In this document: piece by piece, positions 25,628 through 51,893 of the stretch
How positions within the stretch are numbered: position 1 is the first letter of the stretch
How the letters are laid out: each line of letters opens with the position of its first letter
Assembly: GCA_045628045.1 (NCBI GenBank)
Contig: JAZQOV010000006.1
Location: 1 to 64,000, forward strand
Length of the DNA stretch: 64,000 nucleotides
Reading direction: 5' to 3'
Origin: Bacilli bacterium
Lineage (GTDB): Bacteria; Bacillota_I; Bacilli_A; RFN20; CAG-826
The notes under the pieces: generated by a model
What the model was told of the DNA's origin: nothing
The model's input: the letters and a program-made list of their open reading frames with translations, nothing else
The model's database searches: none
Made by a program: the position numbers and the translations under genes

Positions 25628-28126
25628 TTATAGATATGAGTAACTTAGAAGGAAGTTACGCCAATTGGTAAAGTTTGTGTTACTTGTTGTATAGGAACTG
25701 CCCATATAATAAGATCCGTAATTTGCTTGAACATAAACACAAGCTAAACCATAAGCTTTTCCAGCACCTTTTTGAGCAACTGAATAAGCCACTAAATTAC
25801 TAAAAGCATTAAGAACTGCGTTTGTATAAGTACTTCCAGGATTATATGTTGAATGGGAAGCAATTTTTGTAATCATGTCTTTGACATCAAACAAGCAATA
25901 ATATTCTTGGCTATCATCAGAATCTACAGCAAATTGTTTAACAGATGTGCTCATCCAAGCTGCAAAAGTTGAATATGAAACTGACTTGCTTTTAAGTTGC
26001 GTTGACATTGCTGTAGCAAAGCTTTCAAAGGCAGTTTTATATTCGCTCATATAGCTAAGATCTAAATAAGATAATGTTTGATCACTAAAACTTGAAGAAG
26101 CGCCACCATTATCACTAATAAATCCGTCAACAATTGCCTTTAAGATTGTTGTGGTTTCTTTTTTGGCATACAAATCATCAATCCAGGTATTGTAATCCCA
26201 ACCTTCGCCAACTTCTGATTCTTCAGAAGCAATCATGTAATTAAAGTAGTTTGAATTATATTCAGCAATATCTTGAACTTGCATTAAACAACAATCATAG
26301 CCGATAAATTCAAGTTTTGATGTTGAAGTGGCATTAAATGCATTGGTTAAAGCGGTTTTTGTTTCAGAATTGGTAAGAGAATCATCATTCTTTCTTTGGT
26401 CGTAGCAACAACCAAACATGCCTCCACCATGATTCCATAAAATGACGCCTGTTTTATCAGCAGGATATTCAGTTAAGCCCCATTGTAAGAAGCTTTGGAA
26501 TGTTGACGAAGAACCCATGCTTGCGTAAGTTAAAGTATTATCAAGAACAAGTTTCTTGTTCTCAACATGCCATCTAGAAAGTTTAGAAGCATCAATACTT
26601 GTGGCTCCAGAAAGATATGAAGAAGATAATGACCAAGAATATGATCCACCTGTCTCAACAATGATATTTACATCATCTGGTTGATTGTTGACAGATAAAA
26701 TTTCTTTTAAATCTGAGGTTGCTAAAGAATTTTCATCTTCAAGATCGCTTCCACACATATAAATCATGACGGTCCAAGCGTTTTTGCCTTTTGCTGTGAC
26801 AGTTACAGTGCATTTTGCAGTAAATCCACCATCTTCAGTTTTAACCGTAATGTCAGTAGTTCCTTCTGTTAAACCTTTGACAACACCTGATGATACTGAA
26901 GCAACAGCAGGTTTGCTTGATGACCAAGTAACATTTTTGTTTGTTGCGTTAGATGGTGAAATAGTAGGAGTTAAAGTAACTGAGCTTCCTACTTTTACTT
27001 CTTGAGTACTTGGAAGAGTAACACCAGTAACTGCAGTTGGTTTTGATTTAACTTCAATTGTAATTGTGGTTTTTACAGTTTTGTAAGTAATTGTAAGAGT
27101 CTTATATCCAACAAGAGTTGTGTAAATTGTACTAAAAGTACAAGAAGAAGTTACAATAGATGTTGTTTTGTCACTATAAGTAGCTGTAACAACGCCATCA
27201 AAAGTATAAGTATCACCTTTAAAACACCAGTCTGTATAGCCGCTTGCACTAATGGAAACTAATGTGGCAGCTGGTTGTTCATTTACAGTGATAGTAATTG
27301 TAGTAGAAACACCATTATAACTAATAGTTAAAGTTTTATTTCCGGCTAAATACGTGCTTATTGAGCCAATTGAGGCAGATGAAGTAACATCAGCAGTCGA
27401 TCCGTCGCTATAATTTGCAATAACTTTACCATTAAAAGTATAAGCATCGCCCACATAACAAGTTGATGTGTAATTAGTTGCGGTAATTGAAACAAGATTT
27501 ACAGGTTTTTTAACATTAACTGTACATGTGTCTAACTTTGATCCAACTTTCGCTGTAATAACACCAGTTCCATAACCAACAGCTTTAACTAAACCATCAT
27601 CAATTGTTACAACGGAAGAGTTGCTTGTGTACCAAGTGACATAATCTTTAGAAATTGAACTTGGTAAAATTGATACTGATAATGTTGCAGTATCATTTAA
27701 ATTTAAATCTAAAGAATGCTTACTTAATACAACAGATGTAGCTTCTATATTTCTTACAGAAATATTGTATGAAATTGCTTCTGCTTTTTCGTGTGAAATA
27801 TTAACTTTGTAAGTGCCAGAAGTTTCAAATGCTTTTGTACCAGAAAAAGATTTTCCTTCTGGAGTAATCAAAGAATAAGTAAATTCGCTTTTATCAATAT
27901 GGTTTTCTGTAGAATTTTTATCGACAAAATAAACAGATAAACCACCATTGTCGATGAATGAATCAAATACATCACCGACAACATAATTATCTTTTTTGCT
28001 ATCTTGATATTTTAAAGTGCCGTTTGTATTGGTTTCCTCAATAATGGAGCTTATAAAAGAACATCCGGTTAAACTTAAGGATGTTGAGAGTATAAATAAT
28101 GATGATAAAAGCTTACATTTTTTCAT
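25628..28126 (-). CDS. Clostripain-like (C11) cysteine peptidase lipoprotein with bacterial Ig-like repeats
   Basis: Lipobox LTGC; Big_2/Big_3-like repeats; motifs WTVMIYMCGSDLE, WNHGGG and YDCCLM. Confidence 0.85.
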   Translation of the reverse strand: MKKCKLLSSLFILSTSLSLTGCSFISSIIEETNTNGTLKYQDSKKDNYVVGDVFDSFIDNGGLSVYFVDKNSTENHIDKSEFTYSLITPEGKSFSGTKAFETSGTYKVNISHEKAEAISYNISVRNIEATSVVLSKHSLDLNLNDTATLSVSILPSSISKDYVTWYTSNSSVVTIDDGLVKAVGYGTGVITAKVGSKLDTCTVNVKKPVNLVSITATNYTSTCYVGDAYTFNGKVIANYSDGSTADVTSSASIGSISTYLAGNKTLTISYNGVSTTITITVNEQPAATLVSISASGYTDWCFKGDTYTFDGVVTATYSDKTTSIVTSSCTFSTIYTTLVGYKTLTITYKTVKTTITIEVKSKPTAVTGVTLPSTQEVKVGSSVTLTPTISPSNATNKNVTWSSSKPAVASVSSGVVKGLTEGTTDITVKTEDGGFTAKCTVTVTAKGKNAWTVMIYMCGSDLEDENSLATSDLKEILSVNNQPDDVNIIVETGGSYSWSLSSSYLSGATSIDASKLSRWHVENKKLVLDNTLTYASMGSSSTFQSFLQWGLTEYPADKTGVILWNHGGGMFGCCYDQRKNDDSLTNSETKTALTNAFNATSTSKLEFIGYDCCLMQVQDIAEYNSNYFNYMIASEESEVGEGWDYNTWIDDLYAKKETTTILKAIVDGFISDNGGASSSFSDQTLSYLDLSYMSEYKTAFESFATAMSTQLKSKSVSYSTFAAWMSTSVKQFAVDSDDSQEYYCLFDVKDMITKIASHSTYNPGSTYTNAVLNAFSNLVAYSVAQKGAGKAYGLACVYVQANYGSYYMGSSYTTSNTNFTNWRNFLLSYSYL

Positions 28127-29038: not shown

Positions 29039-29671
29039 TCACTTATTATTTTCTTTAATTAAAAAATCTTTTACTTCATCTAAATTTAAATTGGTTAAAA
29101 CTGGAATAAGTTTATTAATTTCATCGACTGGTTTATCCCACCATTTGAAGTTTTCTAATAAATCAATAAGTTCATCATCAAATCTTTTTCTTATAACTTT
29201 AGCAGGGTTTCCGCCAACAATTGTGTATGGTTCAACATCTTTAGTTACTACTGAGCACGCTCCAATAATTGCGCCATCGCCAATATGAACCCCTGGAAGA
29301 ATTGTAACTTTTTCACCGATCCAAACATCATTTCCAACAACAGTATCGCCTTTATAAGGGCAATCCTTATCTGCTGGACGCTTTGCGTCCCATCCTGGAA
29401 TAGTGAAAAATGGATAAGTAGAAACAGCATTTAATTGGTGATTGCATTCATTCATCATAAATTCAACTCCAAATGCGATTTGAACAAACTTTCCAATAAT
29501 AAGTTTATCTTTACTCCACGGATAAAAATGAGTCACGTGAGATTCAAAATCTTGATCTGCAAAATATGAGAAATCTCCAACAATAATATTTGGGTTTTTA
29601 ATTGTTGGTTTTATGTATGTTTGTTTGTCATATCCTGGTATAGGAAATACTAGGTTTGGATTTGGTTTCAT
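29039..29671 (-). CDS. Vat/CatB-family hexapeptide O-acetyltransferase (streptogramin A acetyltransferase-like)
   Basis: Motifs [29 protein letters not shown]...STYPF, GNDVWIG and WWD. Confidence 0.85.
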
Positions 29672-34731: not shown

Positions 34732-37700
34732 TTAATGTGCTTTTTTATTTTTTGCCTTTTTATCAAGCTCTTTAATTTCTTCGCGATATTTTGCCATTTC
34801 CTCAGAGTTTGCTAAGATCCAGTGACCCTTTGTAATTTCTTGAAGGGTTGGCTTTTCTTTAGAATAATCATGAACTTTATTTGGTTCATAAACAATTCTT
34901 TTACGTGTTTTCTCTGTTAATGGATCTGGTTTTGGAATAGCAGAAAGAAGTGCTTTTGCGTATGGATGGAGTGGATGCTTAAAGAGTTCTTCACTTGAAG
35001 CAAGTTCCACCATTTCTCCAAAATACATAACTGCAATTCTATCGCAGAAATATTTAACGACTGAGAGGTCGTGAGCAATAAACATAATTGTTAAGCCCAT
35101 TTCTTCTTTTAAGTCATTAAGAAGATTGATAATTTGAGCTCTAATTGAGACGTCAAGAGCAGAAATTGGTTCGTCACAAATTAAGAATGAAGGATTCATA
35201 ACAAGTGCACGAGCAATGCCAATACGTTGTCTTTGTCCACCTGAGAACTCATGTGGATAACGAGAAGCGAATTCTGGAATAAGTCCGACTTTTGTTAAGA
35301 CATCTGCAACCTTTTTGCTATTAGCAAACTTATTGCGTTGACCTTGAATCTTTAAACCTTCTTGAATAATGTCTTCAACAGTCATTCTTGGATCAAGAGA
35401 ATCAACAGGGTCTTGGAAAATCATTTGCATCTTGCTAAGAAGCTTCTTGTCAACATGTCTATTATCATAGTTAATTTGTTTAATAATAGCTTTTTGAGTT
35501 TTCTTGGTTTCACTAATATGATTTTCGATTTCTTTAATTTGTTTTTCGTAACTTGATCTAATTTGATTTTGTCTTTTTGATGATTCTGAAACATATTTCT
35601 TGTTATAAACACCTTTGGTGACAAGATAATCAATAAACTTAATTATAAAGTAAACTGCTGCACCAATAGCAAGATAAGCAACAGGAACGTACTCTGCAAG
35701 GAATGCAAAACAGAGTAATTCAAATAAATAACCGAGAATGCTAGATAAAACAATCTTTGCACGTTTTGCCTTAATAAATGGTGAATTATTTAAAACATCT
35801 TTGTTTCCGGTTCTTAAAAGCATAAGGATTCTAAGTGGAATCATGCAAATAACAACAAATACAATAATTCTTAAAGCTAAAATAATATCGATAATTTCTA
35901 ATGTGCCTAAGATAATTGCACCTAAACATGTTAAGATGCAAATAACTGTAAAAATAAATGCTGCGAGGAAATTTTGTCCTAAATATCTAAAATAATCTCT
36001 TAAATAACGGCCATGTTTCTTAGCATGGGTTTTCTCAATCTTATTTAATTTAGCTTCGCTAACCTTGATTTGTTTACGAAGTGATTTCCTATCTAAACGA
36101 AGAGAGCGTTTAAGTTCTCTATATTTTCTATTACGCATTTTCTTATTCTTAATTTCGTCATATTTAAGAACTTCGCCTTCGAAATTAATCTTTAAATTTG
36201 CGTAGTCTTCACGTTTATTAATAAGTGTGCTATGTGCAAAGAAAAGATTTTTATCTTCTTTTCTATTTTTTGCTACATAATGAGTTTCAAATTTCTTAAT
36301 TTTTCTAAGAGCTTTAACGTTGTTATGCCCTTTAATTTTGGCTTCTTTTCTAAGATATTTTGCTTCTTTTATTTGTTTATCATAGAAAGTAGCAATTCTG
36401 TTTTTGAAATTCTTAAATTCAACATCAGCAAATTTCTTGTTATATCTAATTTGAACGATAATAAAATCAAGAATTAAATAAGCAAAATAAATTCCTGCGG
36501 ATATTGAAATCCATTTTTGAGAAAGTGCTTTGCAAATAAATGCAATTCCGCAAATCTCAAAAGCAAGTGATAAAACCACGAATAAAGCAACTTTAATAGG
36601 TCTTACAATAATAAACCCAGAATTGCTTTCTCCTTCAGCTTTACCAACTCTAATGAGAAGTAGTACTCCAAAAGGAATAAGGCAAATAATTGCAAATACA
36701 ATATAAGTTAATAATGAATTAATTGATATTAAGTTAGATAAGCTAAGAAGCAATAAGCCAACACCAATTAGAATTGCACCAATAATTGCAATAATTGATT
36801 CAAAACTATATTTTTTAACGAATTTTGAATAATCTCTTAAGAATGAATGGCTCTTTCTTAGGCGAACCTTTTCAATTGATTTAATACGTTTTTCAATTTC
36901 AGCAATTGCTTCAGAAATCGAGATTTCGCTTAAAGCGAATGCATGATTAATTTCATCTCTTTTAACTGAACGTTGTTTTCTGTTCTTAATAAACTTTAAA
37001 GTACGTAATTCAGCTTGATAATTAATATCTAAATTTGCGTATTCTTCATAGCTACTTGCAAGAGACTTTTGAAGTTCTGATAAAACTTTAATGTCTTGTT
37101 TATTAGCTGCAACATAACGAAGTTGTTCTTTCTTTACAAATTTAAGAGCTTTAATTCGATTATGTTGTTTGATTCTAGCTTCTTTAATGGCGAATTTAAC
37201 ATCGCTAATTTGATTTTTATATGAAATTTTTGTTTCTTTAATTCGTTTTGCTAAAGGAGCGTCAAGATGTTTTCTCCTATAAGCTGCTCTAATAAAGAAG
37301 AAATCAATAATGTTATATAAAATATAAACACATGCTCCACAGAAGAAGTAAATTCTTGGTAAATAGCCAAGTATTACAGCAAATCCAATGAGTTCAATTA
37401 GAACTGACAGAATTGCAAAAATGGCTATTTTTATTGGTTTAATTTTGACAAATGAAACACCACTATCATCATTAGATTTATTAAGTCTAAAGATTTTAAC
37501 CATTTCAAATTGCATGATTAAAAGTAAACCAACAGTTACATATGTTAAGTAAGGATTTAGATCAACAAAATATGAAGCGCTAAGGAAAACTAATCCAAGT
37601 GCGATTAAGATTATTCCAATAATAGAAAGAGCTAATCTAAATGGATGTTTACTTCCTTGTTTAAAGTAATCCTTCAAGAAGTGATTATGTTTTCTTACAC

Positions 37701-38319
37701 GGGTCTTTTCAATTCTACGAATATTGGCTTTAGTTTCTTTAATAACTCGTTTATTTTGTTTTTTAGTTACATTGTAACTATGTTTAATCTCAGATTTCTT
37801 GTTAGCACGAAGTTCTAAGTCTTCAATTTCTCTAAGATTAAGACATGCTTCTTCATAATTTGCTTTCAAATTAGCACGTTCTTCAATCTTTTCACCTAAT
37901 GTTCTTTGGAGTTTACGAAGTGGTTCAACATCCTTTTTATTAATGGTTACATAAGTAAGTTCAGAGTTCATTTCTGATCTAAGAGCTTTAATCTTATTTT
38001 TACCTTTAATTCTTGTCCATTTAATTTCTTTTTCATTCCATCTTTTGCCTGCGCTTATACGATGTCCTTCGAAATAAACAGAACCTGATGTAATGTTGTA
38101 AAGTCTAATTAAAGAACGACCTGTTGTGGTTTTACCACAACCAGATTCACCAACAACACCAAAACATTCACCTTTTTTAATATCAAAAGATACATCGTGA
38201 ACTGCTTTTGTGGTAAGTGAATTAGAGCCATGTCCAAACTTAAAATATTGTTTCAAGTGACGGACAGAAACTTCTACATTATTGTCAACAAGTGACTTAT
38301 CAAAAGTAACCTTACGCAT
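34732..38319 (-). CDS. oppF: Oligopeptide ABC ATPase OppF with a ~840-aa triple-repeat membrane insertion
   Basis: Walker A GESGCGKTT, then the insert, then QMIFQDP, FSGGQRQR, ICDEP, H-loop and oligo_HPY. Confidence 0.88.
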   Translation of the reverse strand: MRKVTFDKSLVDNNVEVSVRHLKQYFKFGHGSNSLTTKAVHDVSFDIKKGECFGVVGESGCGKTTTGRSLIRLYNITSGSVYFEGHRISAGKRWNEKEIKWTRIKGKNKIKALRSEMNSELTYVTINKKDVEPLRKLQRTLGEKIEERANLKANYEEACLNLREIEDLELRANKKSEIKHSYNVTKKQNKRVIKETKANIRRIEKTRVRKHNHFLKDYFKQGSKHPFRLALSIIGIILIALGLVFLSASYFVDLNPYLTYVTVGLLLIMQFEMVKIFRLNKSNDDSGVSFVKIKPIKIAIFAILSVLIELIGFAVILGYLPRIYFFCGACVYILYNIIDFFFIRAAYRRKHLDAPLAKRIKETKISYKNQISDVKFAIKEARIKQHNRIKALKFVKKEQLRYVAANKQDIKVLSELQKSLASSYEEYANLDINYQAELRTLKFIKNRKQRSVKRDEINHAFALSEISISEAIAEIEKRIKSIEKVRLRKSHSFLRDYSKFVKKYSFESIIAIIGAILIGVGLLLLSLSNLISINSLLTYIVFAIICLIPFGVLLLIRVGKAEGESNSGFIIVRPIKVALFVVLSLAFEICGIAFICKALSQKWISISAGIYFAYLILDFIIVQIRYNKKFADVEFKNFKNRIATFYDKQIKEAKYLRKEAKIKGHNNVKALRKIKKFETHYVAKNRKEDKNLFFAHSTLINKREDYANLKINFEGEVLKYDEIKNKKMRNRKYRELKRSLRLDRKSLRKQIKVSEAKLNKIEKTHAKKHGRYLRDYFRYLGQNFLAAFIFTVICILTCLGAIILGTLEIIDIILALRIIVFVVICMIPLRILMLLRTGNKDVLNNSPFIKAKRAKIVLSSILGYLFELLCFAFLAEYVPVAYLAIGAAVYFIIKFIDYLVTKGVYNKKYVSESSKRQNQIRSSYEKQIKEIENHISETKKTQKAIIKQINYDNRHVDKKLLSKMQMIFQDPVDSLDPRMTVEDIIQEGLKIQGQRNKFANSKKVADVLTKVGLIPEFASRYPHEFSGGQRQRIGIARALVMNPSFLICDEPISALDVSIRAQIINLLNDLKEEMGLTIMFIAHDLSVVKYFCDRIAVMYFGEMVELASSEELFKHPLHPYAKALLSAIPKPDPLTEKTRKRIVYEPNKVHDYSKEKPTLQEITKGHWILANSEEMAKYREEIKELDKKAKNKKAH

Positions 38320-40096
38320 GTGCTTTATCTCCCTTCTTTGCTTTTAAGGAGTTTGCAATACGAGTTTTAACGATACGTGGCATTGTAACTTTTGGAGCAC
38401 GTGGATCAAGAAGCCATGTTGCTGCATAGTGAGTGTCACTAACTTTAAATAAAGGTGGTTCCTTCTTAAAGTCAATTTCCATAGCATATTTACTACGTAA
38501 AGCAAATGCATCACCCTTTGGAGGGTAAATCATATTTGGAGGAGTTCCTGGAATTGCCTCAAGTTTTTCATTTGAGTCAACATCTGGAATTGAGGAAAGA
38601 AGAGCCCAAGTGTATGGATGTCTTGGATCATAGAAAATTTCTTCTTCTGTTCCATATTCAACAATCTTGCCTGCATACATAACTGCGACTCTGTCTGCCA
38701 TGTTAGCGACAACACCTAAGTCGTGAGTAATGAAAATACAAGAAAGTTGTCTTTCTTTCTTTAAATTGTTAATAAGTTCAAGAATTTGAGCTTGAATTGT
38801 AACGTCAAGAGCTGTTGTAGGTTCATCACAGATTAAAATGTCTGGATCTGCTGTTAATGCAATAGCAATAACAATACGTTGTCTCATACCACCTGAGAAT
38901 TCAAATGGATATTGTCTATAACGTTTTTCTGGATCTTTAATGCCGACTTCTTCCATAATCTTTAAAGCTCTAGCTTTAGCTTCAGCTTTTGTGATTCTTA
39001 ATTTGCTTAAATATTCAATGCGAAGAGCTTTGCGTTCTGCTCTTAAACGTCTAAAGAAGAACTTGTGTCCACTACGTCTTACTCTTCTTGGAGCACTTCT
39101 GCGTTTGAGTTTATATCCATAATGTTCACATTTCTTGTAAATCTTTACTTCACGTTTTGCAACTTTAGTTCTTGCTTTATATTCAGCTTTGAGTTTCTTA
39201 ATAAGTGGAACATATTTTGCCTTCAAAGCATTCTTGTTGTTTTTTGAATTTCCTTGAAGCTCTGCGATTTCAGTGTCAAATTTGATGGTTAATTGCTTAA
39301 TCTTCTCTTTTGATTGCTTACTAAGCTCGGATTTTGATGCTCTTACAGCGTGCAAATTATATTTGTATGATTTAGCAAGTTGAGCAAGTTTAAGTTTTTT
39401 ATTTTTCTTTGCTTGGGCAATTGCTTTCTTTGAAGCACGTTTGTTCTTCATTTTTTCAGCTGCAGCCACTGCACTTCTAAATTCATCTTCAGCGGCAAAC
39501 TTAGATGCGCCATATTCACGTTTAAGTGAATAAGCACGACCTTCAATGTCGTTTGTCACAAAGTTTCTTGCTTGAGCGATTTGTTTTTTCTTCTCACTCT
39601 TTAAGAACTTAATGTTTTCGCTATATTTAGCAAGTCCACTTCTAAGTTCTGTTTCGGCGTTTTTGTATGCAGAAAGTTCTTTAGAAACTAAATCTTCGTA
39701 CATTTTCTTTGTGCGTGAAGCATTAATAAGCATAGCTTCAGTGATTTGTTTCCCAATACGCATGATTGGGTTAAGTGAAGAAAGTGGGTCTTGGAAAATC
39801 ATTCCAATTTTGTGACCTCTGATTCTGTGGAATTCATCCTCAGAAACTTTAGTGAGGTCTTCGCCTTCATACATAATTGAGCCTTCAACGATACGACCGT
39901 TTGAGGCTAAAATGCCCATGATTGCTTTGTTTGTAACTGATTTTCCGGATCCTGATTCACCAACAATACAAAGGGTTTCGCCCTTGTATAAATCAAATGA
40001 AACACCACGGACAGCTTGAACATAACCATGGTCAGTGGAGAAATGAATACGTAAATCTTTTACGCTTAATAATGGAGTTTTCTTTGTTGTAGCCAT
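38312..40096 (-). CDS. oppD: Oligopeptide ABC ATPase OppD with a basic coiled-coil insertion
   Basis: Motifs GESGSGKS, MIFQDP, FSGGMRQR, CDEPTT and HPYT. Confidence 0.9.
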   Translation of the reverse strand: MATTKKTPLLSVKDLRIHFSTDHGYVQAVRGVSFDLYKGETLCIVGESGSGKSVTNKAIMGILASNGRIVEGSIMYEGEDLTKVSEDEFHRIRGHKIGMIFQDPLSSLNPIMRIGKQITEAMLINASRTKKMYEDLVSKELSAYKNAETELRSGLAKYSENIKFLKSEKKKQIAQARNFVTNDIEGRAYSLKREYGASKFAAEDEFRSAVAAAEKMKNKRASKKAIAQAKKNKKLKLAQLAKSYKYNLHAVRASKSELSKQSKEKIKQLTIKFDTEIAELQGNSKNNKNALKAKYVPLIKKLKAEYKARTKVAKREVKIYKKCEHYGYKLKRRSAPRRVRRSGHKFFFRRLRAERKALRIEYLSKLRITKAEAKARALKIMEEVGIKDPEKRYRQYPFEFSGGMRQRIVIAIALTADPDILICDEPTTALDVTIQAQILELINNLKKERQLSCIFITHDLGVVANMADRVAVMYAGKIVEYGTEEEIFYDPRHPYTWALLSSIPDVDSNEKLEAIPGTPPNMIYPPKGDAFALRSKYAMEIDFKKEPPLFKVSDTHYAATWLLDPRAPKVTMPRIVKTRIANSLKAKKGDKAHA

Positions 40097-40097
40097 A

Positions 40098-42203
40098 TTA
40101 TTCACCTTCTCCTTTCAAACTTGGGTTAACAGCATCTCTTAAGCCGTTACCGAACAAGTTAAATGAAATCATAAGTAATGCGATGATAACTGATGGGAAA
40201 ATTAACAAATATGGATGGTTTGTTAACTCGATTTGGTTATCGGAAAGAATAACACCTAAAGAGGCTAAGTTTTTAAATCCTAAACCTAAATAAGAAATTG
40301 TAGCTTCGCTAAAGATAACACTTGGGACCATTAAGACTGCTGAAGTAATAATTGTACCCATGGCGTTTGGAAGAATGTGGCGAGCAATAAGTCGACCATT
40401 CGAAGCACCAAGTGTTCTAGAGGCCAAAACGTACTCTCGACCCCTAAATCTATAGAACTGAGTACGCGTTGTTGCAGCTGTACCAATCCAACCTGTTAAA
40501 CAAAGCGCTAAAGCGAATGTAAAGAAGTTGGATCCAAGTTTAATAATTGTAAGTGTCATAACGACAATCCATGGAACACCAGCAAGAATATCTGTGAAAC
40601 GTTCCATAATAAGGTCGACTGCACCGCCAAAGTAACCACAGACAGAACCCCAGATCAAACCAAATAAGAAACAAATTACTGTTGTGGCAAGGCCAAGGAG
40701 AAGAGAAGTTCTAAGTCCTTCAAAAACATAAATAAACATGTCTCTTCCTGTAACATCTGTTCCTAAAATGAATTTTGGCATCTTATCAAGGCCATATTTC
40801 ATCTTGTAGTAATAAACTTCGACTTTAATATGATCAACAAGTCCTGTTGTTTGGTCTAATACGACATCATCTTTTGTAAAGACTTCAACAAATGGACATT
40901 TTTCTTTATTTAAAATCTCACATTTGCATGAAGTTATTTCATAAAGTCCGGTTTCATCGTTAATTTCAGTCTTAACACTGTAATTGATGTATCCTTTGTT
41001 TTTAAGTTCTTTAAGTTGGGTGTTATACATATCAACAACACGTGCACCCAATACAGCTTCGTATGTGTCATAAGTGAATGAACAAAGAACTGCTCTTATT
41101 AAATAAGAGGTATCTCTAGAATAAGAGGTATTGGAGATATTTTTCCAATAACCTGGTTCTGTTGATAAACGTTTTGCTTCATCATTTCCATCTTTAAATG
41201 AATAAGCATTAAATACTTCGTTTGCGTCATCGTCATAAGTATCGCACTTAATGTTGATTGATTTAATCAAAGTGCAAGCTTGTTTAACTTCTGGATTATT
41301 TTTAACTCTAATTTCAAGTGTTGGGTTATCAATTTTTGAATCTAAATTAAGAGCTTTTCCGTTTTCGTCTTTCATTTCTAAGAACATGTCACGGATATTA
41401 ATTGAAGATTCTTGTCCACCAACATCATGAGACATTGCCCATGAAGTTAATTGGATTTCATAATCAACAAGATTTTGGCTGAATGAGAAGAATAAAGCAT
41501 TCTCGGCATCTTTATAACCTGTTGGGAATTCTTTTGTCTTTTCATCGCTTGCTTCAAGCTTAATAGTGTCATAAGTAACAAAGTTATCTATGATAAAATC
41601 ACCATCAAGGTCGAATTCTTTAAGTTTTGCTTCTGTAGCATAGCTAACGTATTCAACGTCTGCTGGCATTGAGAAATAACCGAATTGGACAAAACCTTCT
41701 CTGAAATATTTATTTGCAGAGGTAACGTATTGTTCTTCACCAATAACTAAATCAGAAACAGCGTTTTTGTTGTATCGATCGTAATCTGGTCCCCATTCAT
41801 CTTTGTTTGAACTTGAAGTATCAACAGCAATGTCCACCATTTTCTTAGTTCCATCCCAGAAACCAGTGCCAGAGTTAAATAATTTTGGCTCTAAGTAATA
41901 AAGTTCTGGATGTGATGAATTTGTTTCGTGAACTTCGCTTGTTTTGCAAACGACTGGAACAAGAACAGACATTACAAGTAAAATGCCTAAAATAACGGTT
42001 GCAACAACACTTGATTTGTTTTTTGCAAATCTCCTTAAGCAGTCTTTAAAGAATGTGGTTGGCTTAGTCTCAAATTTTTGATCATGAATTTTAGTGTTCG
42101 CTTGAACAAGCTTAAAATCAGACTTAGAAATGCTTGGATCTAAGGCTTCGACTGGGAGATTTTTTAAATTGAATTCATTTTTAGCGTTTTTCATATTATG
42201 CAT
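40098..42203 (-). CDS. oppC: Oligopeptide ABC permease OppC with a large extracytoplasmic insertion
   Basis: OppC_N region (RFAKNKSSV), LGTDVTGRD, EAA loop and GNGLRDA. Confidence 0.88.
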   Translation of the reverse strand: MHNMKNAKNEFNLKNLPVEALDPSISKSDFKLVQANTKIHDQKFETKPTTFFKDCLRRFAKNKSSVVATVILGILLVMSVLVPVVCKTSEVHETNSSHPELYYLEPKLFNSGTGFWDGTKKMVDIAVDTSSSNKDEWGPDYDRYNKNAVSDLVIGEEQYVTSANKYFREGFVQFGYFSMPADVEYVSYATEAKLKEFDLDGDFIIDNFVTYDTIKLEASDEKTKEFPTGYKDAENALFFSFSQNLVDYEIQLTSWAMSHDVGGQESSINIRDMFLEMKDENGKALNLDSKIDNPTLEIRVKNNPEVKQACTLIKSINIKCDTYDDDANEVFNAYSFKDGNDEAKRLSTEPGYWKNISNTSYSRDTSYLIRAVLCSFTYDTYEAVLGARVVDMYNTQLKELKNKGYINYSVKTEINDETGLYEITSCKCEILNKEKCPFVEVFTKDDVVLDQTTGLVDHIKVEVYYYKMKYGLDKMPKFILGTDVTGRDMFIYVFEGLRTSLLLGLATTVICFLFGLIWGSVCGYFGGAVDLIMERFTDILAGVPWIVVMTLTIIKLGSNFFTFALALCLTGWIGTAATTRTQFYRFRGREYVLASRTLGASNGRLIARHILPNAMGTIITSAVLMVPSVIFSEATISYLGLGFKNLASLGVILSDNQIELTNHPYLLIFPSVIIALLMISFNLFGNGLRDAVNPSLKGEGE

Positions 42204-43242
42204 TCTTCTCCCCCATTCTGATACGTGGGTCAATAAATCCATATGAAAGGTCGAGGACAATACCTGCAAGTAAACCGACAATTGTAAAGATTGCCATGTC
42301 TACTAAAAGGACGTTGTAGTCTGGGTTTGATTGATTTAAAGCCCTAATATAAATATTTCCAATACCTGGAATATCGTAAATTGATTCAAGAATCATACTT
42401 CCGGAGAAAACACCGATGAATTCTGCCAAAATTGATGGAAGAATTGGAACGAATGCATTTCTTAAAGCATGACGAGTAATGGCTTGGCGTTTTGTTAAGC
42501 CTTTTGTGCGCGCGAGTAATAGATATTCGCTAGACATAACTTCACAAAGTTCAGCTCTAACGAAACGTGTGTAACCACAAACAGAGCCAAAGCTTAGTGA
42601 CATAACTGGAATAATGTAAGCTAAAATTCTTATTTTAAGTTCAGCATCTTTTGTTGGCCACATTGTTGGAAGACCGCCTTTGAATGCTAACAAATAAACT
42701 AAGAAAATGATAATGACGAATGATGGGATAGAAATAAAAATCATAACAAGAGTTGAAATTGTGTGGTCAACCCAAGTATTTTTCTTAAGTCCTGCAATAA
42801 TACCAAAAAGAATTCCTAAAGGAACTGAGATTAAAACAGAAATAATATTAACCGAGAATGAAATTGGGAGTCTATCAAAGATGATTTTGATTGCAGATGC
42901 ATTTGGTTCAATAACTGTAGATCTGCCCCAGTCCCATTTAGTTACAATGTTTTTAAGCCATGTAGTGTATTGTTCAAAAATAGGTTTTGTATAAAAATAG
43001 TGCTTAGTACCATTAAGCTCTGTAAATGATTCAAGAAGTTTACCAAGTTCATCATGAGGAACTGGCATATCAACAACATATCCAAGTTCGACTTGGTCAA
43101 GATAGAAAGCGTAACGAACACTTTCAGTTGGAGATACAACGCCGGTTGGCGGTAAGGATTTGATTAAGAAAAATGTTAACGTCAAAATAATAAATGCTGT
43201 GACAAACGCTAACAATATTCTTTTAATAGAGTACTTTAACAT
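42196..43242 (-). CDS. oppB: Oligopeptide ABC permease OppB
   Basis: Motifs ARTKGL, RHALRNA and DPRIR. Confidence 0.92.
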   Translation of the reverse strand: MLKYSIKRILLAFVTAFIILTLTFFLIKSLPPTGVVSPTESVRYAFYLDQVELGYVVDMPVPHDELGKLLESFTELNGTKHYFYTKPIFEQYTTWLKNIVTKWDWGRSTVIEPNASAIKIIFDRLPISFSVNIISVLISVPLGILFGIIAGLKKNTWVDHTISTLVMIFISIPSFVIIIFLVYLLAFKGGLPTMWPTKDAELKIRILAYIIPVMSLSFGSVCGYTRFVRAELCEVMSSEYLLLARTKGLTKRQAITRHALRNAFVPILPSILAEFIGVFSGSMILESIYDIPGIGNIYIRALNQSNPDYNVLLVDMAIFTIVGLLAGIVLDLSYGFIDPRIRMGEKNA

Positions 43243-43383: not shown

Positions 43384-44571
43384 TTATAAATCGTACATTG
43401 TGTCGACTAATTTGTAGCCGTTATCTTTTGGATTTTGAACCTTAACAATTTCAAATTCTTCATCAAATATTTGGCTACGATTGAATGACCTAGTCCAGTG
43501 CTTTCCTTCGAGCTCATATGACATTGTCATATCAGCTGTTAAAGTTCTGGTTAAATTCTTACTATTTAAGAAGTCTTGTTTATAGACATAATCATAGAGA
43601 GTATCTGTTGGAATATTGAAGTAATTTATTTCATCATCAGCATCAACAACTTGCTTTGTTCCGCTCTCGCTATAAGAGAGTAAAAGTGATTCTTCATCAA
43701 CAGAATAAAACTTTGTGGAGGACATGCCAATAAAGTCACTAAAATCTGTTTTTCCATCAAAATCTTCAAGAGCATCATTGACAATCTTTTCACCACTTAC
43801 GAAGAAACAATTGAGAATACCTTTAATAGCTTCATCGTATGTTTCGTAGGCTGATGTATTTAAGTCAAAATAGTTCTTTTCGTTCTCGGTAATGTGGATC
43901 ATTCTTACATATTGACCATAGTTAATTTGGTAGAAAATCCATTTGCCATCTGATACTTCTGGAGCTCCGCCTTCAGTACGATAAGTGATGTAAGGTCCTT
44001 CAACAAAGAAGTAGCCTGCATCCATATCATAACCAATTGCTTCATAGCTCTGACTTCCGTATTGTTGAACTCCTTCACATCCATAGAATTCTTCACTATA
44101 TTCGTAGCGAACGCATTTTCTAACATGTGAATAGCTTTCAGAATTATATTTGTTCTTAATGTTATCAATAACACCTTGAACATCAGCTTTAGCTGATGAA
44201 GCAGAAACAATTGCTCTTACTTTTCTTGAAATTTTCCCATCTTTTGAAGTGATAAGAATGTCTGTGTAGCCTTTCTTGTGGCCAGTTAAAACACCAGTTT
44301 CAGAAACGCTAACAATTGATTCATCATTTGATGTAAATTCAATTTGGTTAAGAGTGTATTGTTCTGGGAATGACTCGATTTCAATTTGTTTAGTTTCATT
44401 AACAGTTAAATTGTAACTAAGTCTTTTCGCAGAGAAATAATCATTATCTTGATAACCAATACCAGGAAAATTATAGACATGAGTCTCAATATTCGCTGAT
44501 TTAGGTCCACATGAAGCTAAAGCAACAATACCGACAGCACCTGTAAGAAGAGTTAATAATCTTTTATTCAT
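43384..44571 (-). CDS. Lipoprotein with a Big_2 Ig-like domain
   Basis: Lipobox LASC; FTSNDESIVSVSETG. Confidence 0.7.
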   Translation of the reverse strand: MNKRLLTLLTGAVGIVALASCGPKSANIETHVYNFPGIGYQDNDYFSAKRLSYNLTVNETKQIEIESFPEQYTLNQIEFTSNDESIVSVSETGVLTGHKKGYTDILITSKDGKISRKVRAIVSASSAKADVQGVIDNIKNKYNSESYSHVRKCVRYEYSEEFYGCEGVQQYGSQSYEAIGYDMDAGYFFVEGPYITYRTEGGAPEVSDGKWIFYQINYGQYVRMIHITENEKNYFDLNTSAYETYDEAIKGILNCFFVSGEKIVNDALEDFDGKTDFSDFIGMSSTKFYSVDEESLLLSYSESGTKQVVDADDEINYFNIPTDTLYDYVYKQDFLNSKNLTRTLTADMTMSYELEGKHWTRSFNRSQIFDEEFEIVKVQNPKDNGYKLVDTMYDL

Positions 44572-44591: not shown

Positions 44592-47500
44592 TTATTCGTC
44601 TGATAAATCAACCGCGTGATAGTTGATTGATGGAGCACCACCATTAATTGAAAGTTCATAATAGAATTCATAGCAGAATTCAAAATTAAGTCTTGATTCA
44701 ATAAATGGATTTTTGTGCCATTCGTCTTTATCTGAATCTTTGAAGCCATTTTGTTCTTTAATTGCTTCATTGACTTCTTGAGCCTTTTCTTTTGTTACAG
44801 TAATAATCACTTCGTGATTATCCTTATCATAAACGATGTTTCCATCGCCTTTTTCAGCAAGGGTAATATTTCCTCTTCCAACAACATAAACATCGAATCT
44901 ATTAGCGTCAAATTCAGCTTTCTTACCTTCAACATTGGATTCAGCAAAATCAACATTGAGTTTAATATTAAATCCTTCGTACATGTTTCCTTGAATATCA
45001 TTTACACCATGAATTTCAAAGACACCAGGTTTCATTGGTCTAGTTGCTGCACATAAATTAACTGGTTCAATCTTCTTACCATTTTCAACGATTCCGCCGT
45101 GGTCTGCAACTTCCCAAAGGGCATCAAATGACCATTTTTGTCCATCATAAATGATTGGATTCTTTTCGTCGATTTCAGAGGTATCTGGACCCCAGTTAAG
45201 TGTAAAGCTTGAAGAGTTATCGCTCTTTAAAACTTCCATAAAGTTGAGTGGGTTGTAAGTATTTCCGCTAATAGCACCAAAGCCAAGATCGAAACATCCT
45301 TGCATCATCCAGACGTTGTAAACGTCTTCCCAGTTAGTAACTGCGTCTTGTTCAACTTTAAGTTTTACTTTACCACCGCAAACAGCGTCATCGTTAAATG
45401 CAGTTTCGAAATATGATTTAATATCTTCACCATATTCTTTAATATCTGTTTGATACATCCATCTAATGTGGATTGTAATTGTGGTTGGATCAGCTTTGCT
45501 CTTGCCTAAAACAATTTTTCCTTCTTTTGAAAGTTGTTGTACTGCATTTCTGAAGCAGTCAACAGCTTTATCATAGTTATAACCGAAGTTTTCGGCATAA
45601 CCTGCAACAGCGTCTTTATGAGCTTGATATTCGTTGTAGCTCTTACCACCATCTTTATTTCTCATTTGATATGCATCTGAGAAGTAGTTTGTTGATGGAA
45701 CAACGCCACGTTTTTCAGCGAATTGATATCTATCAATTGAGTAGAATAAACCATCAAGGAAGTCTTGATTTGACATCCATGGTTTAATATCCCAAGTTTG
45801 GTTTGCTGGCCATTTGCCTTGTGGGCCAAATGTTTCGTCCCATTGTTTTTGAGTCATTGAGTTAACATTTAATTTAAATGTTGAGTCACCTTTTGTCTCA
45901 TAAACACCTGGTTTTCCTCTCCATTCTTGTGTCTTTTTACTTGGAACACCAGCGGAGTCAAGGTTACCAGCTTCAAGTTGTTTCCAGTTCTTTTCTGTGT
46001 CTGTTGAAGTATCAATAACACGGTAGTCAATACCTGGAATGTGATAACGTTCACCAACTTCGAACCAGTTATCATTTCTTGTGAAAATAATTTCTGAATT
46101 CTTCTTCCAATTTGTAAGTGTAAATGGACCTACACAAAGTGTATAGTCAAGAATTGCATCATCATTTTCGTTATTGAAAGTACCATAAATCTTAATGGAA
46201 TCTTTCATTGTAGACTTAATTGCCTTTTCACCCATGAATAAGTCTTCTGGGAGAGGTGAGGTTAAGCTACTTGAAAGTGTGTACATAGCAGTAAATTCAT
46301 CAATTGGGTTGATTAATTCAATATCCAAATAATCAAGATTATTTGTGTCATCGTGACCTTTTTGAATACCTAATTTAGAATTACCATTTGCGTCAACTTT
46401 AGTAAATTCTTCCCATTTCTTATTGATTTCTTCTTTAGAAGTCATTGATTTGGTTTCATTAAAGTAACGTTGTGCACCTTTAATACCATAAGAAGAATCG
46501 TTAGCCATTTCAGTACCACGAATAATGTTATTTGATCCTGTTAAAAGGAGTTTATAAGCAAATTCGTAGTCATCAATTGTAATGCCTCTATTGTTAAAGC
46601 CTTGTCCTTGGAGTTTGCTTGATGCAGTTGTGTATTTTAAATTTGCACCATTAACACCATCGGTTTTAACGTAAATTCTCCATTTTTTATAAAGTTGAGT
46701 TGCGGAATATTCCATCGGAATAGGTGCGTCATTAACTTTCTTTTCTGAATAACCAGTCATTTCACCTTTTTCGTTAAATTGTGGTGCTTTGACTTCGTCA
46801 GCAGCTAAACATGGATACCAAACATATGAAGTTTTACCTTCAAGTTTTGTTCCCCAATAAGTTGAAGTAATATAACTTGCAAGATCACTTACTTGTGAAC
46901 CAGTAGCACTGTATTGGTTAATCTTAAGTGAGTCTTGAGCAATTGATTCATGTAAGAATGTTGGATTTTTCTTTCCTTCATCTCCGGGAAGAGTTCCGTT
47001 TAATTTGCCTTCGGCAAGTAATCCGAAACCATAGCCTTGAATGTATTCACCATCGGTTGGAAGTTCAACACGATCGCTATATCTAACAAGTCCACCATTA
47101 TCAAAAAGTGTGATACCTGTTAAATGTGTATCCATTGCATATTTTTCAAGCTTTCCTAAGATTTCTGCACGTTTGTTGAGTTCTTCTGTTGTTGTACCAC
47201 CAGAATAGTTTTGTCCACCAGTGAACTTTTCAGCATCTTCAACAATCAAAATAGATTTCTTTAAAGCTTTTGTTTCATCTGACTTAGTTTCGGTAACTCT
47301 AAAGTTAACTGTACCAGTTGATTTTGGAGAAATCTTACCGTTTTCATCAATTGTTGCTACTTTTGGATTTGTGGATTCAAAAGTATATGTTCTTCCGGCT
47401 GTATCAATACCATTGTCAAAAACTTGAACACTTTCATTTGTTGAGCTTAATGAAATGATTGATGCGCCTGATTTCATTCCAACTGAAAATGAGAAGTAAA

Positions 47501-47615
47501 CTTTTTCTTCACTTGGATTATCTGATGTACCAGGATTACAGCCAACAAGGTTAGTTGCACCAAAAGCAACAAGTGCTAAAGCAACTGAATTAGTAATTAA
47601 TTTTCTTTTACTCAT
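44592..47615 (-). CDS. oppA: Large OppA-like peptide-binding lipoprotein with an N-terminal Ig-like domain
   Basis: Lipobox LVGC; Big_2 motif; SBP family 5 features (ITIDDYEFAYK, VGPFTL, RNDNW); upstream of oppBCDF. Confidence 0.75.
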   Translation of the reverse strand: MSKRKLITNSVALALVAFGATNLVGCNPGTSDNPSEEKVYFSFSVGMKSGASIISLSSTNESVQVFDNGIDTAGRTYTFESTNPKVATIDENGKISPKSTGTVNFRVTETKSDETKALKKSILIVEDAEKFTGGQNYSGGTTTEELNKRAEILGKLEKYAMDTHLTGITLFDNGGLVRYSDRVELPTDGEYIQGYGFGLLAEGKLNGTLPGDEGKKNPTFLHESIAQDSLKINQYSATGSQVSDLASYITSTYWGTKLEGKTSYVWYPCLAADEVKAPQFNEKGEMTGYSEKKVNDAPIPMEYSATQLYKKWRIYVKTDGVNGANLKYTTASSKLQGQGFNNRGITIDDYEFAYKLLLTGSNNIIRGTEMANDSSYGIKGAQRYFNETKSMTSKEEINKKWEEFTKVDANGNSKLGIQKGHDDTNNLDYLDIELINPIDEFTAMYTLSSSLTSPLPEDLFMGEKAIKSTMKDSIKIYGTFNNENDDAILDYTLCVGPFTLTNWKKNSEIIFTRNDNWFEVGERYHIPGIDYRVIDTSTDTEKNWKQLEAGNLDSAGVPSKKTQEWRGKPGVYETKGDSTFKLNVNSMTQKQWDETFGPQGKWPANQTWDIKPWMSNQDFLDGLFYSIDRYQFAEKRGVVPSTNYFSDAYQMRNKDGGKSYNEYQAHKDAVAGYAENFGYNYDKAVDCFRNAVQQLSKEGKIVLGKSKADPTTITIHIRWMYQTDIKEYGEDIKSYFETAFNDDAVCGGKVKLKVEQDAVTNWEDVYNVWMMQGCFDLGFGAISGNTYNPLNFMEVLKSDNSSSFTLNWGPDTSEIDEKNPIIYDGQKWSFDALWEVADHGGIVENGKKIEPVNLCAATRPMKPGVFEIHGVNDIQGNMYEGFNIKLNVDFAESNVEGKKAEFDANRFDVYVVGRGNITLAEKGDGNIVYDKDNHEVIITVTKEKAQEVNEAIKEQNGFKDSDKDEWHKNPFIESRLNFEFCYEFYYELSINGGAPSINYHAVDLSDE

Positions 47616-47633: not shown

Positions 47634-50600
47634 TTAGAATTTAAGCCATGAGAATAAATTCCCAAATATATTCATGAAGAATTCAGCAATTACTACTAAT
47701 AGGCTCTTCTTCATAGAAGAAGCTTTTGATTTTTCTTTACCAGTAGTAACTGTAACATCGTACATTGTAGTGAATTCTTTTTCTTCACCATTTTCATCAA
47801 CTCTGATGTATGTGACTTTATTGTTCTCAAACTTAAAGTCATCATTAATGGTGAATTCTGAACCTTGTGCTATTTCAAAGTCACTATAACTTCCATTAAA
47901 GTGACAAATTGCTGTGGTTTCTCCACGTGCGTAATCAACTACTTTAATAAATACACGTGAATCTGAGAATGATGTTTTAGCAGATGAAGAAGCTGCTGCT
48001 TCCATGATTGATTTCTCAAATTCTGAAACATACATCTTTCTTTGTGAATCATACTTAACATCGACCATCGTACTTCCTACAATCGCGTACGCGCATTTAG
48101 TTTCCTTATATGTTAAGCGAATCATATCTTTACCATTTTGGCTAAATTGTTCGATGGTTTCGATAACTGGTGATTCACTATCGATGTGAAGTGTGTATGC
48201 TTTTGAAACCCAAGCACCTGTGGAGGCTAATTGGTAATTGAACTTAAGTTCGTATTCTCCACTTGGGAAGGCCTCTTTTGTTTTAATATCGTAAAGAGGA
48301 ATTAAGGCAAGTGCTCTATGAGCAATATATCCTGCGCCAAGATAATCAGCATCAACATGTGATTTATAAAGTGCATATTTACCAGCAGTGTCACCGAATA
48401 AGCTATCTTCGAGAGCGTTACGGTAAACTTCAATGCCGTTTGCCTTATTTGTGATTGTGAAATAGTTATCTTTAACAGATCTATACACGAATTGTTGAAC
48501 AATTAATGTATTTGTTTTTGATGGGTTGCCAAGATAAATATTTTCTTTTGGATTATCTGATAAATCGCTTGAATATGGATCTGGAACTGTTGCAACTTCG
48601 TGGAATCCTGCGAAATTCTTAATGTTATTATCATTTGTGATAACGCCATTCATATTTACGTTTTGGAGGTTCTTTGCGTAACCTGCAACCATGAGTGAGC
48701 CCATGTCAGCGTTATCTTTACCAAGAAGTGATTTTGCAATGTCGTTGATGAGGTCACTACCGTAGATAGTGTTTTCTTCTTTCTCAAATGAGAAAGGTTC
48801 AACAACTGGAGCACTTGAATATGAAGCGCCATCAATTCTATCGCTTAATGAGTAGAAACCCATGTAAGGGATGGAAAGATCAATGTAGCCATCAATTGAT
48901 TCAAGTGAAACATAACCTTCAAGATAAGTTCCGCCTTTGTAAAGTTCAGCGATTTTGTCCTTTTGTTCTTTGGTAAGTTCATATGATTTTAAGCTAACAG
49001 CTGTTTCGCCATTTGCTTTTAATGTAACTTGACCACAATCAACTGAGGCGATTTCGATATCTTTAATTGATTGATATTCGCTACTTGGAACTTCTTTCCA
49101 AACATATTTTCCAGAAGTGTTATCACAATAATATAAACCTTCTTTGAGAACACCTTGTGGATCTTCTGCTAAATATTGTGATTCGTTTTCGAAGTATTCA
49201 ATATCTTTAGATACTTTGATGACATCTTTATAGTTTGCAGTGCCATCTGCTTCGATAATCTTTTCTTCTTCTGGTGAATAGAATACGAAACCTGGAATTG
49301 ATTTGACTGAGTCAACTTCAACAGGAGTTCCGTAGTCACTTGTAAGAACTTTGTTGCTATAAGCAACAGCTGGTCTCATAACGTTGTATTTAACATTATA
49401 AGTTCTAGCAGTGCTTGATTCGTTATGACCAATAAAGCTTAATGAAATTTTTCCTTTTGAAACATCATCTGAGTTTCTAAGTAAGATTTTGGCTTTATTA
49501 AGTCTTGTGCCATCAATGTCCATACCTTCAAGATAAACATCTGTGTTATAGGCACCTTCTAAGTTAACAAGACCTGCACCTTGCATACGTGGTGAGGTAA
49601 GTGAAACTTCATTATTTTCATCATTAGCATTGCTATCATGCATTGGAATAGCAGTTGACATCATCTTCATGTCAATTGTTTTTCTTGCTTCGGCAATAAC
49701 TTTAGAAGCATTCTTGTCTGATAAATTTAATTCACTTGTTGTTTTTGATAAAACAAGAGCCATTGCACCTTCAAAGTTTGGTGCAGCCATTGAGGTACCA
49801 TTAAGGTACTCATATGCGCTATATGGTGTTTTCTTTTCTTGTTTATTTTGTGGCCAGACAGCACCTTTAATATTGCTACCTGGAGTTGTAATTTCTGGTT
49901 TCAAATCAAGATCATAAGTTGCACCATCAGTTGAGAAGTCACTAATTGTACGTGATAAAACGTTTTCAGATGCAGTATTTCTCTTAATTTTGAGTTTTCC
50001 TTGTGGTTTTGCTTCAAACATTGGTTTATCTTTGAAAAGTGCAAGTGCGATTGGGAATCCAATTGATTTTGCACTATCACCAAAGTCACAAGTAAATGTA
50101 AAGTCTTGTTCGGTTGGGTCATTATTAATAATGACTAAAGCTTTAGCACCATGGTTATCAGCCGTTTCGTATTTTTCTGAGAAGTTGATTTTACCACGAT
50201 TGAGAACAACTATTTTTCCGGATACATCAAGGTTTTTGTAATCTTTTTCTTCACCGAAACCTTTAACATAGACATAGTCTAATTCAATTTCTTGCTCTTC
50301 AGCAGTTGGTTCAAATCCTTCTTCATCAGGATCGATAACACCGCCATTAATAAGTTCAAGGAATCTATGTTCGTTATCTGGATAAGTAGCAGCTTGTCCT
50401 TCTCTATTGACGATTTGATCAAGATAAGGAACAACTGCGCCATCTAAATCGAATGAATCAGCATAGAATGTTTTTGTTGGTTGTCCAGCAGCAACTGTCA
50501 TTGTTGAGGCATTATTTGCGAAAGAACCCATAACACCAGTTTCAACAATGTCTTTTGTCCAGTTGGCATAGCCACCTGTAAATGCATAAGACATTTTTCC

Positions 50601-51728: not shown

Positions 51729-51893
51729 ATCTTGTCCTCCTTTTTTATTTTTCTTTTGAAAAATCGTGTATATATTATACTCGTGTGTGTAGAAATGCAA
51801 TAATAATTTATTTTTTTCTTTGAAAAAAGGAAATTATTGCAATAAAAAAGGACTCAAATAATGAGTCCTTATATTTGTAATAACAAATATGTA

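Follow-up and report, generated by a model that had tools for sequence, protein, structure and literature searches.

In the 64,000-nucleotide (nt) stretch analysed here (the window; contig JAZQOV010000006.1, positions 1 to 64,000, assembly GCA_045628045.1 of a Bacilli bacterium), the oppF gene of a peptide importer operon was found to encode an ATP-binding cassette (ABC) ATPase whose nucleotide-binding domain (NBD) is split by three tandem repeats, each containing a helical arm followed by the presence of a module of four predicted transmembrane (TM) helices. A probability of about 0.5 is given to the reading that this protein is the OppF of an intact OppABCDF importer and that the module tethers or scaffolds it in the membrane beside OppBC, with no second transport path. 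Importer ATPases are textbook soluble subunits, and here the NBD is split by about 860 amino acids (aa) yet the catalytic motifs are all kept.

The oppF open reading frame (ORF) was found to read under table 11 into 1,195 aa, and genetic code 4, being not needed, was set aside. The protein (P0001) is OppF as judged from its motifs, fold and operon. Walker A, Q-loop, signature, Walker B/D-loop and H-loop were found to be intact, as the preliminary description had stated, followed by the presence of the oligo_HPY C-terminal region (PF08352; 34.1 bits against a cut-off of 27.1). The NBD fold was closest to solved OppF/DppF (Foldseek E 1e-17 to 8z21_D) and the best NCBIfam match was NF043078 (MMSYN1_0168, 649 positions; E 1e-113). 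The scores were found to be below the NCBIfam equivalog cut-offs (381 against 800 for NF043078 and 305 against 540 for NF011659), with the insert dividing the domain in two. The spacing between Walker A and the Q-loop was 909 aa, whereas ordinary Bacillus-type OppF contains about 49 aa, so the whole insert comes to about 860 aa; its presence at this place had been noted before, with a size of about 840 aa that is corrected here. OppF was found to depart from the soluble-subunit feature of its family by 12 predicted TM segments. ATP hydrolysis by OppF would be coupled to peptide uptake.

The insert was found to contain three repeats of 279 aa with the same starts (38022, 37185 and 36348) and the same exact 837-nt period as first described. 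The lag autocorrelation of OppF peaked at 279 (31%) and 558 (26%), followed by a next best lag of 12.6%, the ungapped identity between the repeats was 34/28/31% versus 7.6 +/- 1.5% in shuffles (maximum 12.5%, n=1,000), and the DNA repeat family D1 in oppF was spaced by 837 and 837 nt. Each repeat contained a basic helical arm (positions 1-114) followed by the presence of an amphipathic helix with the FL.DY motif (hydrophobic moment 0.44-0.65), then four hydrophobic segments and lastly a return helix. With 19-residue Kyte-Doolittle segments of at least 1.5, 12 segments were found, four per repeat, TM2 of repeat 1 being the weakest (1.56). The Lys/Arg-rich helical part and the four hydrophobic helices per repeat of the preliminary description were thus recovered, while its about 12 TM helices stand as a hydropathy-based prediction in which several helices are marginal. 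On a rough biological insertion scale, made with our own weighting, TM1 was clearly favourable (-2.0 to -2.8) and TM4, some TM3 and the TM2 of repeat 1 were marginal (+0.6 to +2.1).

The outer loops of the TM modules contained about 3-12 aa with 0-2 lysine or arginine (K/R) residues, whereas the TM2-TM3 loops contained 18-25 aa with 3-6 K/R. These lengths and charges fit an N-in/C-in topology, in which both NBD halves would stay cytoplasmic, and the short outer loops leave no ectodomain. The net charge of the arm was +12 to +23 in four TM-bearing units (the three repeats and that of the relative P0002, below) versus -3 to +8 in six soluble orthologues, as expected if the arms rest on the inner leaflet. 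Few polar residues were found within the TM segments. The charged positions Lys198 and Asp240 were found to be conserved in all four units, and Glu210 in the three repeats, its presence in P0002 being alignment-dependent.

The repeats were found to be only 52-53% identical in DNA, with saturated identity at the 4-fold silent sites (8/19, 10/18 and 9/18), and the GC content at third codon positions of the insert (0.17) was like that of the NBD (0.18 and 0.24). In run X1, one contig was found to extend across 35480-38030 with 35 differences and 0 gaps, and in run X2, from another study, one contig crossed the insert with a 95-nt diverged stretch of unchanged length. This stretch (window 36088-36184) lies in the repeat-3 arm and is a local hypervariable or recombined patch. 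The X4 and X7 contigs contained repeat sequence at about 84-87% DNA identity, two X7 contigs crossing repeat junctions. Among the indels listed, all were compensating pairs but for one low-depth X7 contig with an uncompensated +1/-2 pair; five more indel rows lie beyond this list. The insert is real, being crossed by single contigs of X1 and X2, and its misassembly is essentially refuted by the independent-strain contig and the saturated silent sites.

About 1.4% of the sites in X1 were found to differ from those of the window, so X1 represents another strain, though the best-matching sample may be the source sample. Among the 32 of 35 X1 differences that were listed, the TM modules contained 15 silent and 0 replacement changes, whereas the arms contained 8 silent and 9 replacement changes (TM modules against neutrality, P <1e-7; TM modules against arms, Fisher p 0.001). 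In this small sample of one strain pair, the pattern of substitution shows purifying selection, by which the TM modules are maintained as the most constrained part of the insert.

The full unit of arm and TM module was found in the source genome (G000) only, among the 37 genomes of the genus as well as among 401 genomes sampled from the order, where weak TM-part matches were unrelated membrane proteins. Four of the 36 other congeners matched repeat positions 1-108, the soluble part, only (three complete frames of 503-506 aa and one truncated where its contig stops), and no match to the TM part was found in any of them. A donor search of 1.84 billion cluster representatives with a three-repeat profile gave P0002 and P0003 only. 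P0002, a single-member cluster, was found to be a 638-aa OppF with one unit (positions 1-279 matched once, E 5e-32) and 4 hydrophobic segments, the phmmer E against the E. coli OppF/DppF-type NBD being 1.8e-73; by length arithmetic, 1,195 - 2 x 279 gives 637. P0003, on a 1,366-nt contig, combined the N-terminal part of OppF and a piece of the arm with a C-terminus that by its motif is presumably of RecB/AddA-like nuclease type, and is probably a chimeric assembly.

In soluble orthologues, the arm helix that descends and the one that returns were found to be joined by a linker of about 10-14 aa, whose site the 4-TM module occupies. In the NBD tree (45 rows, midpoint root), P0001 and P0002 were sisters (99/95) nested in soluble-arm forms, and the unit tree (12 arm segments) was (P0002,(r1,(r2,r3))) with the repeat clade at 95/93. 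The similarity of the P0002 TM module to those of the repeats was weak but positional (z 1.9-5.4, about 25% identity). By this placement the soluble arm is ancestral and a trait of the lineage, the novelty being the TM module and the triplication, and the likely order of events is a soluble arm, the gain of one TM module and two tandem duplications. An origin of P0002 by collapse of the triple is disfavoured, since the repeats group together excluding P0002. No two-unit OppF form was found in the searches made. Orthologous arms of equal divergence (about 30% identity between congeners) were also found to be indel-free over 108 columns, so the exact repeat period is expected and no symmetry argument is needed.

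The search with a repeat profile for stand-alone homologues and copy-number variation, as envisaged at the outset, gave the one-unit P0002 and no stand-alone form. No stand-alone or donor homologue of the module was found in the own genome (tblastn and hidden Markov model), and plasmids and phages gave no match. Word-based protein searches, weak in that one also missed P0002 and the other excluded proteins below 657 aa, gave P0001 only, and a metagenome pattern scan contained 443 pattern matches with 0 relatives. The best Pfam match of the module was DUF2157 (E 0.008, 16 bits against a cut-off of 32), the PDB sequences gave 0 matches, and the ESM Atlas gave no feature matches and structure rows that were all below the naming bar. 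In these profile, fold and sequence searches, no clear match of the insert to a described family was found.

Of the 164 OppF rows collected, 92 were found to carry a helical arm in the interval from Walker A to the Q-loop, which, together with NF043078 as the best match, agrees with the earlier statement on soluble arm insertions in Mollicutes-type OppF; within one family, the spacing of the two motifs varied from 112 to 274 aa with the length of the arm. A TM segment inside the arm was found in P0001 alone among the 164 rows, P0002 being additional, and in 2 of the 278 distinct OppD/OppF frames of the loci examined (P0001 and the OppD of G048). None of 119 other long OppF-like proteins was found to contain a TM segment, nor did any of the 78 frames in 40 regions chosen for the longest OppD/OppF frames in the family. 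N-terminal TMs were found in 11 OppF rows of three apparent kinds (threshold 1.9).

The oppD of G048 (L028:5818-7827, -), a near relative in a sister branch, was found to encode an OppD whose own arm ends in a hairpin of two TM helices (residues about 367-407), a part that matched itself only among 401 family genomes. An N-terminal 4-TM fusion was found in the OppF of L039:2187-4073, a 2-TM fusion in that of L131:5654-7396, and a TM followed by a probable ectodomain of about 330 aa and a TM in those of a Clostridia group (L046:197-2662, L055:4747-7269, L127:3747-6272 and L145:3771-6269). Compared with the module, neither the G048 hairpin nor the N-terminal TMs of L039 and L131 exceeded the shuffle controls in similarity, and these TMs are probably independent of it. 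On these counts, TM gain in Opp ATPases is rare but recurrent. In the OppD of the window, the arm tip (38978-39181, -) was found to contain 26 K/R versus 5 D/E in 68 aa and an FFF stretch, at the place where G048 has the hairpin, and may be a peripheral membrane contact. Many relatives (among proteins P0004-P0062) were found to fuse OppD and OppF in one chain of 1,090-1,380 aa with both arms, several of them with PF09954, and the short-arm congeners (L004:1081-3177 and L006:1066-2991) contained long, highly charged C-terminal tails in OppF.

The full-length AlphaFold model of OppF (mean predicted local distance difference test (pLDDT) 69, predicted template-modelling score (pTM) 0.53) was found to have high confidence in the NBD, in the first arm and in the return helix and low confidence across the TM modules, the alignment behind it scattering the P0002 TM module over the repeats and leaving the TM parts nearly without depth. 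In repeat 3, it contained a predicted continuous helix from the arm into TM1 (H731-803) followed by a predicted return helix that runs into the NBD (H910-955). The single-module model (4-row alignment; pLDDT 63.5, pTM 0.40) contained four helices behind the lead-in helix, the loop from TM2 to TM3 being disordered. Its fold matches were at helical-bundle background, the best Foldseek E being 0.32 and the best VIA match a designed filament (Z 8.7, root-mean-square deviation 5.6 over 135 residues). The insert was found to take the place of about residues 90-98 of E. coli OppF, just ahead of the Q-loop, in a segment of the NBD that presumably faces the membrane. The permease-docking cleft of the NBD lies between two subdomains joined by the Q-loop (PMC6906923).

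The operon was found to contain oppA, a lipoprotein gene, oppB, oppC, oppD and oppF in this order, oppF being last and oppA, B, C, D and F all being present (Table 1). The oppD gene overlaps the start of oppF by 8 nt, and a purine-rich stretch resembling a ribosome-binding site precedes oppF. The changes found in G000 only, at positions shared by five relatives, were 0 in OppB and 2 in the TM part of OppC; OppB and OppC being complete and nearly unchanged, the insert replaces no permease part and left no clear footprint there, and its role as a substitute for a missing permease helix was rejected. A second complete opp operon (G000:C8:19089-27686) was found to contain arms on OppD and OppF and no match to the repeat profile. 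A 1,388-aa ORF (47634-51800, -), presumably subtilisin-like by its motifs, lies just upstream of oppA. The window also contained an 832-aa Ig-stalked lipoprotein ORF (25628-28126, -), which we take from its motifs to be clostripain-like, and a 210-aa ORF (29039-29671, -), presumably with the look of a CatB/Vat-type hexapeptide acetyltransferase.

Table 1. Coordinates of the opp operon genes, the ABC motifs and the parts of the insert in the window
Feature	Position	Strand	Description	Matches
oppF	34732..38319	-	1,195 aa; ABC ATPase, triplicated arm + predicted 4-TM insert	ABC_tran, oligo_HPY; best fold match E. coli OppF 8z21_D
Walker A GESGCGKTT	38125..38151	-	residues 57-65	
Repeat 1	37186..38022	-	residues 100-378; arm, TM module, return helix; starts KWTRIK	
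TM module 1	37267..37680	-	amphipathic lead-in helix + 4 predicted TM helices	
Repeat 2	36349..37185	-	residues 379-657; starts KEARIK (residue 379)	
TM module 2	36430..36843	-		
Repeat 3	35512..36348	-	residues 658-936; starts KEAKIK; return helix re-enters NBD	
TM module 3	35593..36006	-		
Q-loop QMIFQDP	35407..35427	-	residue 965	
ABC signature FSGGQRQR	35224..35247	-	residue 1025	
Walker B LICDEP	35167..35184	-	residue 1046	
H-loop FIAHD	35068..35082	-	residue 1080	
oppD	38312..40105	-	597 aa, partner ATPase; own soluble helical arm between Q-loop and signature	
oppC permease	40098..42281	-	6 hydrophobic segments, large outer domain	
oppB permease	42196..43242	-	6 hydrophobic segments	
Lipoprotein-like ORF	43384..44571	-	Ig-like (Big_2) domain; within operon	
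oppA	44592..47615	-	family-5 solute-binding lipoprotein + Ig-like domain	SBP_bac_5, E 1.4e-15

The genome of the host (1.07 Mb, 14 contigs, about 33% GC, 96% complete) was found to contain no match to the Mur ligase and transpeptidase/penicillin-binding protein families, the controls being matched in 12 and 10 of 14 genomes. Its sequence was carried by gut metagenomes, with no RNA data set among the carriers listed, and the named relatives were uncultured Bacilli and Acholeplasmataceae. By these gene contents and relatives, the host is probably a wall-less, Mollicutes-related gut bacterium. Mollicutes-related lineages on table 11 are described in PMC7301438.

In the proposed mechanism, the lineage-typical arm would have gained four predicted membrane helices at its tip, followed by a tandem triplication that would make OppF an integral membrane protein. 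The arm would leave the NBD just before the Q-loop, near the permease-docking cleft, and likely extends along the inner leaflet, each module being likely N-in/C-in with two short-looped hairpins that keep the NBD halves cytoplasmic. OppF, with its long and basic arms, is likely kept at the membrane by the anchors, which may help OppBCDF to assemble or to stay stable in a cell that probably has no wall. OppBC would remain the path of the peptides, with ATP hydrolysis still taking place between OppD and OppF. Given that no ectodomain is left and that a relative has a single unit, a folded membrane tether is the simplest reading. Several points weigh against it. For a plain anchor, one or two helices under little constraint on their sequence would be enough, and the 12 helices, the zero replacements in X1 and the conserved charges point to a bundle that is folded and makes specific contacts. 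Most relatives were found to be without the anchor, so tethering is not required. The homology of the P0002 TM module to the repeats is weak, with z as low as 1.9 and at most 5.4, two conservative TM replacements were found among 8 listed differences of other strains, and the Fisher p would be 0.035 if the 3 unlisted X1 differences were TM replacements.

A regulatory membrane sensor is an unlikely alternative, in which the bundles would act as detectors of lipid composition, tension or protonation (TM3 Glu, TM4 Asp) and tune the ATPase via the arm by the Q-loop. The strong purifying selection, the conserved charged TM residues and the predicted continuous helices between arm, TM1 and NBD are as such a sensor would have them, but no ectodomain and no sensor-family match were found, and the modules diverge fast between species (about 25% identity to P0002) and are present in 1 of 401 order genomes. 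Somewhat less probable is its extended form, an undescribed 4-TM sensor or effector domain with a coiled-coil lever to the Q-loop side, in which a 12-helix pseudo-symmetric bundle would gate uptake by membrane state; if true, the recurrent independent TM gains would be a general route from soluble importer ATPases to regulated integral membrane proteins. To the same low degree, a non-adaptive accretion may be considered, by which a hypervariable arm gained hydrophobic helices and duplicated and selection would only keep the insert folded and inserted and OppF unbroken. The wide variation of arm length and sequence and the very narrow distribution speak for accretion, whereas the triple was kept with saturated silent sites and in the populations at about 84-87% identity, although recombination could easily have collapsed it early, and constraint is stronger on the TM modules than on the arms.

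It is rather improbable that the modules recruit a membrane protein (the stalk of the upstream surface protease, OppA or a peptidase) as a scaffold for a platform of proteolysis and uptake: the operon follows the large, presumably subtilisin-like ORF and contains Ig-stalked lipoproteins, but the neighbourhood is alike in relatives without TM modules and no partner was identified. Of the roles of anchor, sensor and channel first proposed, the anchor fits best, and an obligatory pseudo-trimer or channel was not supported. Such a channel or second transporter, with three 4-TM units in a 12-helix ring around a central, ATPase-coupled path, is likewise rather improbable; the units are three and of equal length, Glu and Asp are conserved in TM3 and TM4, and the chain must return to the NBD and so keeps the units close, but a one-unit form exists, the equal length is expected, the outer loops are tiny, polar TM residues are few, OppBC is complete and already supplies the path, and no channel was credibly matched by the structure of the module. 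An assembly artefact or pseudogene is barely conceivable, since P0001 being a single-member cluster on one contig, the uncompensated pair in X7 and the indels outside the listing are set against diverged repeats that X1 and X2 each span in single contigs.

Taken with the preferred reading of a membrane tether, the series of OppF with 0, 1 and 3 modules and the G048 OppD hairpin form a natural comparative set for the role of the widespread Opp ATPase arms and for the passage from a soluble to a membrane protein, the importance being limited by the very narrow distribution and the uncultured host. An Opp/Dpp NBD with TM helices placed inside it was not found described in the literature as covered by titles and abstract openings, with subscription journals mostly outside the scope, and within this and the family searches made, a membrane-spanning triplicated insert is, as first supposed, not among the described architectures.

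Among known systems, E. coli OppF/DppF (PDB 8Z21 and 8Z1V) was found to share the NBD sequence and fold and the five-subunit operon with the present system, whereas its subunits are soluble and of about 333 aa (PMC12136057) and the present OppF has an insert of about 860 aa in which 12 TMs are predicted. The same source gives four C-terminal cysteines and a [4Fe-4S] cluster for E. coli DppD/DppF, whereas residues 1104-1195 contain no Cys here. In the arm-bearing OppF known from Mollicutes, from related uncultured Bacilli and from gut Clostridia, Walker A and the Q-loop are likewise separated by a helical arm, homologous in congeners to repeat positions 1-108; it is soluble there and carries predicted TM modules here. 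The ATPase subunit of B. subtilis TagGH is, like OppF here, an ABC NBD subunit with a TM helix of its own besides the permease, but TagGH is an exporter with one TM placed C-terminal to the NBD and leading to an extracellular domain, neither inside the NBD nor repeated (PMC11466899). No ABC_membrane-type Pfam domain was matched in OppF. Type IV ABC exporters likewise contain TM helices and an NBD on one chain, but their TM domain lies outside the NBD and forms the transport path, whereas here the predicted TM helices lie inside the NBD and a separate OppBC is present.

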